A DNA stretch of 24,000 nt from Bacillota bacterium (GTDB taxonomy: Bacteria; Bacillota; Clostridia; Lachnospirales; Lachnospiraceae): NCBI GenBank assembly GCA_023443225.1, contig JAEZVF010000057.1:1534-25533 (forward strand). Reading direction: 5' to 3'. Of this stretch, positions 15,544 to 17,336 are shown piece by piece. The notes beneath the pieces are model-generated. The model was not told the DNA's origin. It saw only the letters and a program-made list of their open reading frames with translations, and did no database searches. Position 1 is the stretch's first letter. Every line of letters starts with the position of its first letter. The translations under genes were made by a program, and so were the position numbers.

Positions 15544-15572
15544 TTGACAATCTTCGATGTGATTGATATAAT
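15544..15572 (+). promoter_or_regulatory. Perfect-consensus sigma-A promoter of the arsR-hgcAB operon
   Basis: TTGACA (15544-15549), exactly 17 nt of spacer, then TATAAT (15567-15572). Confidence 0.8.
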
Positions 15573-15606
15573 TCGAACATATCGAGAATGTTCGATGACA
15601 TTGATA
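15553..15606. promoter_or_regulatory. Candidate ArsR/SmtB operator sites overlapping and following the promoter
   Basis: An inverted repeat TCGAACAT (15573-15580), 7-nt spacer, ATGTTCGA (15588-15595) starts right after the -10 box. There is also a 16-nt direct repeat, TTCGATGtgATTGATA (15553-15568, spanning the spacer and the -10 box) and TTCGATGacATTGATA (15591-15606). Confidence 0.55.
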
Positions 15607-15632
15607 CGTATAAATGTACAGGAGGTAATTTT

Positions 15633-15950
15633 ATGAAGCATTCATATGCAGAATATGTTCCCGTAATTAAGGCTGTGTCTGATGAAACACGGTTAAAGAT
15701 TATTGATATGCTATCTTGTGGAGAAATGTGCGCATGTGATATATTAGAAGAATTCAGCATTTCCCAATCCACTCTCAGCTATCATATGAAAATTTTAACT
15801 GAAAGCGGACTTGTAAATGCAGTACGTGATGGGGCATGGATGCGGTATACACTTAACAAAGAAAAAAAAGATGATTTAATAGCTTTCTTTACTGGAATAA
15901 CTTGTGAGAAAGACACAGACTGTTGTAAAGGATGTGATAAAAATGAGTAA
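15633..15950 (+). CDS. arsR: ArsR/SmtB family metalloregulatory repressor with a Cys-rich C-terminal tail
   Basis: The winged-HTH is present (DETRLKIIDMLSCGEMCACDILEEFSISQSTLSYHMKIL) and includes a CxC metal site of the ELCVCDL type. ATG 15633 is preceded by AGGAGG. The tail is CEKDTDCCKGCDKNE. Confidence 0.85.
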   Translation: MKHSYAEYVPVIKAVSDETRLKIIDMLSCGEMCACDILEEFSISQSTLSYHMKILTESGLVNAVRDGAWMRYTLNKEKKDDLIAFFTGITCEKDTDCCKGCDKNE

Positions 15951-17031
15951 CGAGAAGTCCTGTTGCTGCTCGGTCAGCAGTTGTTGCAGCACGGAATATA
16001 TCACACCGTATGATAAAAATGATAAATGGGTAACGGGTGAAATACATACTCCTAAAGGCAGTGTGCCTGTGGTTTCAACAAGTCTTCACTTCAAAGATAA
16101 GCTTGGAGCGTGGAAGGTGCGTTGGGGTATCAGCAGGATGAATTACAAGATCAATCCGGGACTCTATGCTATAGGTAAGCCTAATCATACATCCCCTGTG
16201 CTGGTAAGTGCGAACTACAAGCTGACTTTTGATGTCTTAAGGAAAGAGTTATCAGGTCTGGATTGTTGGATTTTGATACTTGATACAAAGGGCATCAATG
16301 TTTGGTGTGCTGCTGGTAAAGGTACATTCGGAACCGATGAAATAGTAAACCGTATATCGAAGACTGGGTTGTCTGAGATAGTATCTCACAGGAAATTGGT
16401 GTTGCCGCAGTTGGGTGCGCCCGGTGTGAGTGCCCATGAAGTGACAAAACAAACAGGATTTTCTGCGGTTTACGGACCTGTGAGAGCGAAGGATATAAAG
16501 ACATTTCTCGATTCAGGCTTCAAAGCCACAGATGAAATGCGTACCGTGAAATTTACGATATGGGACAGAATGGTTCTCACTCCGTTGGAATTAGTGGCTA
16601 GCGCAAAGTCTTCATTGATGGTTTTTGGTGTAATATTTCTCCTAAACCTGTTCGTTACAAGACCTTTCGGGCTTGAGGATTTCATTGCCTATACAGGTGC
16701 TGTGTTAACGGGAACTGTCATAACACCTTTACTTCTTCCCGTGATTCCCGGAAGGGCCTTCGCATGGAAGGGCTGGTTGCTTGGGCTGTTGTGGACGTTG
16801 GGTTTTAGCTGGTATAGCGGCTGGTTTATTTCAGGATTTTTGCTTCTTTCCATTGGGTATTTGCTTGTATTGCCGTCATTGTCGGCTTATTTGGCGATGA
16901 ATTTCACAGGATCGTCAACCTATACATCCTTTTCCGGTGTTATTAAAGAAATGAAAATAGCAGTGCCCCTTATTGTTATTTCATCCCTAGTAGGGATTGT
17001 ATTGTTACTGGTAAATAGTATATTTACATAA
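15943..17031 (+). CDS. hgcA: HgcA, the corrinoid protein of the mercury-methylation pair
   Basis: The diagnostic motif GINVWCAAGKGTFGT is present (NVWCAAGK at 16297-16320, Cys codon at 16306-16308). A soluble CFeSP-like N-domain is followed by about 5 predicted TM helices (from about 16600). ATG 15943 overlaps the arsR stop (ATGAGTAA). Confidence 0.85.
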   Translation: MSNEKSCCCSVSSCCSTEYITPYDKNDKWVTGEIHTPKGSVPVVSTSLHFKDKLGAWKVRWGISRMNYKINPGLYAIGKPNHTSPVLVSANYKLTFDVLRKELSGLDCWILILDTKGINVWCAAGKGTFGTDEIVNRISKTGLSEIVSHRKLVLPQLGAPGVSAHEVTKQTGFSAVYGPVRAKDIKTFLDSGFKATDEMRTVKFTIWDRMVLTPLELVASAKSSLMVFGVIFLLNLFVTRPFGLEDFIAYTGAVLTGTVITPLLLPVIPGRAFAWKGWLLGLLWTLGFSWYSGWFISGFLLLSIGYLLVLPSLSAYLAMNFTGSSTYTSFSGVIKEMKIAVPLIVISSLVGIVLLLVNSIFT

Positions 17032-17042
17032 AGGAGGACACT

Positions 17043-17336
17043 ATGAAACATAGATATTTGAAAAACGTTGCAACGCTTGTTTTGTCTGCTGAAAAATGTA
17101 TCGGCTGCGAAAGATGCGCTGAGGTTTGTCCTCACGGAGTTTTCAGTGTGAACGAAAAGAAAGCACAGATTGAAGACAAAAACCGTTGTATGGAGTGCGG
17201 TGCTTGCGAGAAAAATTGTCCCGCAAACGCTATAACTGTTGATTCTGGAGTGGGATGTGCCGCAGCCGTGATTATGGGCTGGCTTACAGGGAGTGAGCCA
17301 AGCTGTGATTGCTCTAGCGGTGAGGGATGCTGCTGA
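17043..17336 (+). CDS. hgcB: HgcB, the 2x[4Fe-4S] ferredoxin partner of HgcA
   Basis: CIGCERCAEVCP and CMECGACEKNCP are present (the latter's CMECGAC core at 17187-17207). The C-terminal Cys-rich tail ends in the conserved vicinal CC (17328-17333). AAGGAGG overlaps the hgcA stop. Confidence 0.85.
   Translation: MKHRYLKNVATLVLSAEKCIGCERCAEVCPHGVFSVNEKKAQIEDKNRCMECGACEKNCPANAITVDSGVGCAAAVIMGWLTGSEPSCDCSSGEGCC

Follow-up and report, generated by a model that had tools for sequence, protein, structure and literature searches.

A predicted ArsR-controlled hgcAB operon with an arsC pseudogene in a Lachnospirales-like genome

A set of three genes, arsR, hgcA, and hgcB, lies on contig JAEZVF010000057.1 of a Bacillota bacterium (Lachnospiraceae; assembly GCA_023443225.1), where an earlier note made from the letters alone had described a complete, self-contained mercury-methylation operon. 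The window analyzed here is the whole 24,000-nucleotide (nt) stretch in which the set was noticed, with gene coordinates taken from an open reading frame (ORF) listing and from direct reading of the sequence. The search against curated HgcA and HgcB hidden Markov models (HMMs) that the note had proposed was passed at both NCBI equivalog models, and the identities of all three products were borne out by scores above the family cutoffs (NF040863, NF040864, and NF033788 for HgcA, HgcB, and ArsR, respectively). The features of the locus, including an arsC remnant downstream of hgcB, are as follows.

15496–15527, + strand: intrinsic terminator of the upstream gene hyp138, marking the left edge of the cassette
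15541–15558, + strand: candidate ArsR operator O1, ATATTGACAATCTTCGAT, overlapping the −35 hexamer
15544–15572, + strand: sigma-70 promoter, TTGACA, 17-nt spacer, TATAAT, with an extended TG
15579–15596, + strand: candidate ArsR operator O2, ATATCGAGAATGTTCGAT, just 3′ of the −10 hexamer and over the likely transcription start
15633–15950, + strand: arsR, encoding a 105-residue ArsR/SmtB metalloregulator with the α3 site LSCGEMCACDILE and the C-terminal tail CCKGC
15943–17031, + strand: hgcA, encoding a 362-residue corrinoid methyltransferase with a poly-Cys tail, a domain for corrinoid binding, and a domain of about five transmembrane (TM) helices
17043–17336, + strand: hgcB, encoding a 97-residue 2×[4Fe-4S] ferredoxin with Cys72 and a C-terminal CC pair
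17345–17575, + strand: arsC pseudogene (thioredoxin-type, low-molecular-weight protein tyrosine phosphatase fold), with the ribosome-binding site and first 32 codons kept (17371–17469)
17576–17622, no strand assigned: hairpin with a perfect 18-bp stem, probable bidirectional terminator of the unit's 3′ end

HgcA scores 492 bits against the equivalog model NF040863 (cutoff 275) over profile positions 1–324 of 325, and falls below the cutoffs of both the HgcAB-like fusion model (216 bits; cutoff 285) and the gamma-subunit model for corrinoid iron–sulfur protein (CFeSP; 82 bits, cutoff 306). The cap helix NVWCAAGK occupies residues 119–126, enclosing Cys122, and is encoded at 16297–16320, exactly where it had first been placed. 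High stringency, as published (PMC10087281), calls for one of six cap-helix motifs, of which this is one, and for C(M/I)ECGA on the contig too; HgcA and HgcB together carry the combination. The window protein is on these grounds a genuine HgcA. The C-terminal TM domain of HgcA has been described with five helices (PMC7305189). Four strong TM segments and one Trp-rich segment were evident from hydropathy, and an AlphaFold model built from 36 close homologues, of which only the secondary structure was used, placed five helices at residues 206–361 with low confidence (mean predicted local distance difference test score, pLDDT, of 46; predicted TM-score, pTM, of 0.40). Hydropathy and model are thus loosely compatible with the described domain; of the roughly five helices proposed originally, four are clear, and the fifth appears as the Trp-rich segment and in the low-confidence model.

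The N-terminus of HgcA bears a poly-Cys tail, SCCCSVSSCC (residues 7–15; window 15961–15987), not covered by the curated HgcA profile. Nearly all Clostridia relatives keep it (also at loci L026, L041, L044, and L058), and at L026 it is enlarged to a long Cys-rich stretch. It may offer Hg(II) or As(III) a thiolate arm; no description of an HgcA N-terminal poly-Cys tail came out of a literature search.

HgcB matches its equivalog model NF040864 with 133.6 bits (cutoff 99) over the entire profile (positions 1–93 of 93). The motif criteria applied to it, taken from PMC7305189 and PMC10087281, are a pair of CxxCxxCxxxCP motifs, the sequence C(M/I)ECGA, a conserved Cys some 12 residues further on, and one or more Cys at the C-terminus. 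Reading of the protein located the two cluster motifs, CIGCERCAEVCP (residues 19–30) and CMECGACEKNCP (residues 49–60), with CMECGA included, and the remaining cysteines at positions 72, 88, 90, 96, and 97, the C-terminus being ...CDCSSGEGCC; the CMECGA-type motif and terminal CC pair seen at the outset are therefore real. Cys72 is the equivalent of Cys73 in the HgcB of Pseudodesulfovibrio mercurii ND132.

The three genes are tightly packed. As first reported, arsR and hgcA overlap by 8 nt (ATGAGTAA), hgcA starting at 15943 and arsR ending at 15950, and this overlap recurs in many close relatives. The hgcB ATG at 17043 begins 12 nt after the hgcA stop codon (TAA, 17029–17031), and its ribosome-binding site, AAGGAGG at 17031–17037, had been said to overlap that codon; it does lie at the codon, and we describe the two as abutting.

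ArsR belongs to the HTH_5 family (PF01022, 62.6 bits; cutoff 22) and scores 86.1 bits against the ArsR/SmtB metalloregulator model NF033788 (cutoff 55). Its ATG at 15633 sits 8 nt after an AGGAGG ribosome-binding site, and at this codon the homologues encoded at five other loci and on a Peptoclostridium plasmid each start with MKHSY. A longer ORF from 15588, the choice of gene callers, was rejected because its ATG falls within the operator and leader and because the homologues begin with MKHSY behind AGGAGG. The α3 site LSCGEMCACDILE (Cys29, Cys33, and Cys35) is kept in all aligned ArsR homologues, regulators of pure ars loci included, the form LSCGE(M/L)CAC being common to the window protein and the regulator of such a locus. 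We take this Cys-x-Cys site to resemble those of the R773 and pI258 ArsR proteins. Its best match in a plasmid database (72% identity) is an ArsR that Peptoclostridium acidaminophilum encodes at an arsR-DUF2703-acr3/arsC locus, and matches at about 47% identity are ArsRs of Lactobacillaceae plasmid ars operons. Close homologues precede acr3/arsC, and at the window locus only the arsC pseudogene remains. A 13-residue "DCICK..." segment of the closest alleles, containing a CxC, is missing from the window protein. By its sequence, this ArsR appears to be of the canonical ars-operon type.

The control region is probably of the same character. Upstream, a 9-bp stem with five G–C pairs (15496–15519) is followed by the T-run GTTTTTTT, and both the terminator directly ahead of the unit and the single consensus promoter behind it, as initially noted, were upheld: the −35 and −10 hexamers, TTGACA-17-TATAAT, agree with the consensus at 12/12 positions, and the promoter is conserved at loci L008, L018, L026, L052, and L048. 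Candidate operator O2 overlaps an 8-bp inverted repeat, TCGAACAT-N7-ATGTTCGA, at 15573–15595. Allowing one mismatch, ATATCGA-N6-TCGAT occurs twice in the whole window versus 0.12 matches expected by chance. The 18-nt motif ATATYGA-N6-TCGAT was found in 32/83 loci, mostly just 5′ of arsR, and occurs also at loci with another arsR allele. At the P. acidaminophilum locus, two copies lie 42 nt apart 5′ of arsC, the first containing TTGACA. From this distribution we infer that ArsRs of this clade probably use the motif as their operator and that hgcAB is probably driven by an ordinary ars promoter. An Rfam scan of the whole window gave no match and hence no cobalamin or S-adenosylmethionine (SAM) riboswitch in the leader.

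Past hgcB, the unit is probably longer than the earlier note had it. A 32-codon ORF (MSNNPKVTFICVHNSCRSQIAEALGKHFAGDI, then a stop codon) with a conserved ribosome-binding site begins 34 nt after hgcB, and its 32-residue product gives LMWPc and arsenate reductase HMM matches corresponding to the N-terminus of a thioredoxin-type arsenate reductase. Alignment with the Acetivibrio straminisolvens locus (L005) reveals the rest: window positions 17345–17471 correspond to 7439–7568 there, the opening 130 nt of the arsC region, and 17480–17636 to 7770–7926, the final ~100 nt of the intact arsC plus the hairpin after it. The gene has lost about 200 nt from its middle, a small indel causes a frameshift, and the last ~30 codons are still recognizable. 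With 32 codons left in frame, the remnant lacks the full-length ArsC fold and its downstream catalytic cysteines and is a pseudogene. Only arsC fragments likewise follow hgcB at loci L028 (~7382–7840) and L053, and loss of arsC from operons of the arsR-hgcAB type seems to recur.

The interval between hgcB and the remnant lacks stable structure (z score 0.23), and the hairpin that follows the remnant has a folding free energy of −21.3 kcal/mol (z score −4.4). Because the gap is unstructured and the perfect stem comes after the remnant, transcription most likely extends from ~15580 to ~17625, dead arsC included; the description of arsR-hgcA-hgcB as a complete, self-contained unit thus does not hold, there being no terminator between hgcB and the degraded arsC, and the unit is predicted to end at the hairpin. 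That this hairpin serves the neighboring Xer-like recombinase as a dif-like site was rejected in favor of a terminator because A. straminisolvens has the homologous sequence after arsC, without a recombinase there. Selection on the genes ahead of the remnant was estimated as the ratio of nonsynonymous to synonymous substitution rates (dN/dS; Nei–Gojobori) against six relatives, giving 0.11–0.19 for hgcA, 0.08–0.17 for hgcB, and 0.09–0.15 for arsR. With ratios of 0.08–0.19 throughout, arsR, hgcA, and hgcB have therefore been maintained during the decay of arsC.

The arrangement is widespread among relatives. A scan of species-representative genomes retrieved 78 loci encoding HgcA relatives, whose neighbors were identified by tblastn and ORF analysis. 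Where HgcA is at least 74% identical to that of the window, arsR lies directly upstream at 27/28 assessable loci, and at 14/29 acr3 and/or an intact arsC follows directly downstream; over all loci the corresponding counts are 50/74 and 24/67. The arsR-hgcAB arrangement is thus the rule within this clade, and the view that hgcAB is rare was not sustained, at least 8000 homologues having been found. Defluviitalea raffinosedens (L082) has a complete arsR-hgcA-hgcB-acr3-arsC operon with an HgcA 89% identical to that of the window. Together with loci L018, L052, and L020 from metagenome-assembled genomes, it represents Clostridia operons (HgcA 84–89% identical) that share with the window the 8-nt overlap, the hgcB–arsC spacer, and the operator motif. 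Unlike in these operons, acr3 is absent from the window, and an internal deletion and a frameshift have disrupted its arsC. McDaniel et al. 2020 (PMC7438021, Fig. 6) described hgcAB/acr3/arsC neighborhoods of the same kind, and that hgcAB associates with arsR, acr3, and arsC is on record in the literature (PMC7438021, Fig. 6; 10.1101/2022.10.17.512643). In Acetivibrio mesophilus N2K1 (L002 and L003; NZ_RLII01000001.1), two arsR-hgcA-hgcB-arsC cassettes lie ~107 kb apart on one contig, each HgcA being ~87% identical to that of the window.

Several lines of evidence suggest that the region is a horizontally moved mosaic cassette set between chromosomal flanks. The G+C content (GC) of hgcA (43%) and hgcB (47%) exceeds the 33–35% of arsR and the flanks. 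DNA homology to relatives starts at 15519–15543, in those with the same arsR allele, and ends at ~17636, and none of the flanking genes recurs beside hgcAB in the 78 related loci. Clustered at 90%, the flanking proteins remain singletons or nearly so, and the HgcB cluster includes proteins named from Desulfitobacteriia, Clostridiales, and Acetivibrio. A conserved ABC transporter ATPase of the host finds a best identity of 83–84%, its best named relatives being of Lachnospirales type (Ca. Lachnoclostridium, 80%; Epulopiscium, 77%; Cellulosilyticum, 76%), whereas HgcA finds matches at 87–93%. The placement of the genes between ordinary housekeeping genes, as originally described, is correct insofar as the flanks are chromosomal; it leaves aside that the unit is a higher-GC mosaic cassette beside a tyrosine recombinase and that its contexts differ elsewhere.

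The mosaic structure is most apparent in arsR, two alleles of which precede similar hgcAB genes (82–90% nt identity). In one group of loci, arsR and its promoter are 75–92% identical to those of the window, and in the other 44–62%; 3′ of a switch point at ~15906–15917, in the arsR tail, both groups are 84–91% identical to the window. The window arsR is of type A, whereas those of D. raffinosedens and Acetivibrio are of type B (45–61% nt identity). Upstream of the breakpoint at the arsR 3′ end (15906–15950), the window resembles type A loci only. The allele breakpoint and the missing 13-residue segment suggest a recombination or deletion in the arsR tail.

At the right edge, a Xer-like tyrosine recombinase (17653–18741, − strand; 362 residues, Phage_integrase domain) converges on the cassette terminator. 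Among NCBIfam models it matches XerS best, with 189 bits, short of the 267-bit cutoff, and it is a singleton at 90% clustering. It was rejected as a component of the cassette, a counterpart lying next to hgcAB in 0/78 related loci. Direct repeats or att-like sites were sought at the cassette edges, and only a weak 14-nt inverted match (12/14) was found there. Its two halves, at 15538–15551 and 17623–17636, lie at the exact edges of the cassette homology, and there are many similar chance pairs; the match is probably a product of chance in AT-rich DNA.

Taken together, the locus is in our judgment very probably an hgcAB operon under ArsR repression, presumably inducible by arsenite, that equips its host to methylate Hg. 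In the proposed scheme, hgcAB would be the cargo of a ~2.1-kb horizontally acquired ars-type operon whose consensus promoter, flanked by two copies of the operator motif, is probably repressed by the canonical, Firmicutes-type ArsR; the cassette would be the remainder of an operon for arsenic resistance. Binding of As(III)/Sb(III) or another thiophilic metal to ArsR would lift repression, yielding a single transcript of arsR, hgcA, hgcB, and the dead arsC remnant that would end at the 17576–17622 hairpin, with translation of hgcA coupled to that of arsR through the 8-nt overlap. By analogy with the ND132 enzyme, HgcA would be a membrane-anchored corrinoid protein in which Cys122 ligates cobalt and through which a methyl group from SAM passes to Hg(II). 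The low-potential electrons for regenerating Co(I) would come from HgcB, whose Cys72 and pair of C-terminal cysteines would handle Hg(II) and methylmercury (MeHg). The published background is that the methyl donor is SAM, via methylcob(III)alamin (PMC11588087), and that HgcB, a 2×[4Fe-4S] ferredoxin, requires Cys73 and its pair of C-terminal cysteines for activity (PMC11588087; PMC7305189).

Our confidence in this reading derives from the presence of all the diagnostic residues, the precedent of the ND132 ArsR, and the behavior of tested hgcAB+ isolates, every one of which methylates Hg (PMC4646819). In ND132, the upstream ArsR controls hgcAB, is co-transcribed with it, and responds to arsenic and S-adenosylhomocysteine (10.1101/2022.10.17.512643). 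The window resembles the ND132 locus (Parks 2013; 10.1101/2022.10.17.512643) in its arsR-hgcA-hgcB order, with a single promoter implied, and in the cap-helix Cys, TM domain, two [4Fe-4S] motifs, Cys73 equivalent, and C-terminal Cys pair. It differs in that its ArsR has an α3 CxC where the ND132 ArsR2 has a four-Cys site outside α3, and in that it carries an arsC remnant whereas ars genes are absent beside the ND132 hgcAB. Several points weigh on the other side. Owing to the different Cys arrangement in ArsR2, the inducer profile of ND132 may not be transferable, and the loss of the C-terminal CIC segment from the window ArsR could have altered sensing. At a pLDDT of 46, the HgcA model is too poor to confirm the fold. 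The hgcAB transcript level in ND132 is a poor predictor of methylation rate (10.1101/2022.10.17.512643), and the host is an uncultured lineage known from assemblies alone.

A farther-reaching proposition, which we consider rather unlikely as a whole, makes hgcAB of this Clostridia lineage a regulated structural member of an As(III)-inducible operon, more than a chance neighbor of ars genes, with the ArsR, the two-site operator, and the constant place between arsR and acr3/arsC in common. HgcAB would then owe its selection to arsenic or metalloid stress, and arsenic in the environment, instead of mercury, would turn on MeHg production in these organisms; the window would represent a stage at which arsC has been lost and arsR-hgcAB is still under purifying selection.

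Going further, HgcAB might itself work in arsenic or metalloid handling, for example by methylating As(III) or a thio-arsenical, with Hg methylation as a side reaction; the cassette would then be an ars operon that discarded arsC but kept arsR-hgcAB. That hgcAB lies between arsR and acr3/arsC in many relatives, that the promoter–operator layout is common to a true arsC gene, and that arsR and hgcAB are under purifying selection as arsC decays would all fit such a role, as would the induction of hgcAB by arsenic in ND132 and the greater As(V) sensitivity of the hgcAB knockout (10.1101/2022.10.17.512643). The P. acidaminophilum megaplasmid (NZ_CP007453.1; arsR-DUF2703-acr3 with a divergent arsC) illustrates the layout, its two-site ATATYGA-N6-TCGAT promoter lying before arsC; unlike the window, it is a pure arsenic-resistance locus without hgcAB. 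However, the summary given by Gionfriddo et al. states that As resistance is not significantly reduced without hgcAB (10.1101/2022.10.17.512643), roughly half of the close relatives lack ars structural genes beside hgcAB, and co-localization may reflect just a common regulator and hitch-hiking. We judge this role improbable.

It is highly improbable that the cassette is an inactive, decaying remnant in which hgcAB is silent or nonfunctional in its host. The arsC pseudogene, an ArsR short of 13 residues including a CxC, and the foreign GC of the cassette are what such decay would leave, but hgcA, hgcB, and arsR are full-length with all diagnostic residues kept, their dN/dS values are low (0.08–0.19), the promoter is a perfect consensus, and arsR-hgcAB without arsC is a natural state in many relatives. 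The proposal that a halomethane is the native HgcAB substrate, through reductive dehalogenation, with Hg methylation being co-metabolic, draws on a 2026 preprint in which heterologous HgcAB performs both CCl4 dechlorination and Hg methylation (10.64898/2026.04.26.720869). For the present locus it is extremely unlikely: the report is a single preprint without independent confirmation, the locus offers no pointers to halomethane metabolism, and its regulator and ancestral neighbors are of the arsenic type.

The chance that HgcA is instead a non-methylating paralogue, either a relative of the CFeSP large subunit or a fused HgcAB-like protein, is negligible: Pfam detects on it only the CdhD domain common to CFeSP, and a sequence search of solved structures returned CFeSP subunits (gamma) only and no HgcA structure, but the HMM scores given above refute both identities, and the protein has the cap-helix Cys and a TM domain, with HgcB encoded separately next to it. 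The likeness to the CFeSP large subunit (AcsC/CdhE; PDB 2h9a and 4djd) lies in the corrinoid-binding Rossmann domain (HgcA residues 69–190); that subunit is without the cap-helix Cys, the TM domain, and a dedicated HgcB partner, and the match is far below the family cutoff.

Elsewhere in the window, a LacI-family regulator (3320–4285) precedes a phosphonate-type ABC transporter comprising a binding protein, an ATPase, and two permeases, followed by a 5′-nucleotidase/metallophosphatesterase (4349–9461). Closer to the cassette, an exceptionally long interval of ~490 nt at 14563–15054 contains no convincing ORF or Rfam match, between a cytidylate-kinase-like gene and the gene for a Lys-rich, 138-residue hypothetical protein.

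The hgcAB system and its ars association are already known, and the locus adds an example, from a Clostridia lineage not represented so far, and regulatory detail, not a new principle. New here are the arsC pseudogene, the canonical ars-type regulator with its candidate operator, the evidence for a mosaic, horizontally moved cassette, and the quantified synteny within the clade. The locus marks its host, an uncultured fermenter that is Lachnospirales-like, as a likely producer of methylmercury. Its regulatory anatomy predicts arsenic, not mercury, as the switch, which is relevant to MeHg forecasts at sites with both metals. The canonical type of ArsR, the operator motif held in common, and the repeated loss of arsC where hgcAB is kept together provide a testable handle on what HgcAB evolved for.

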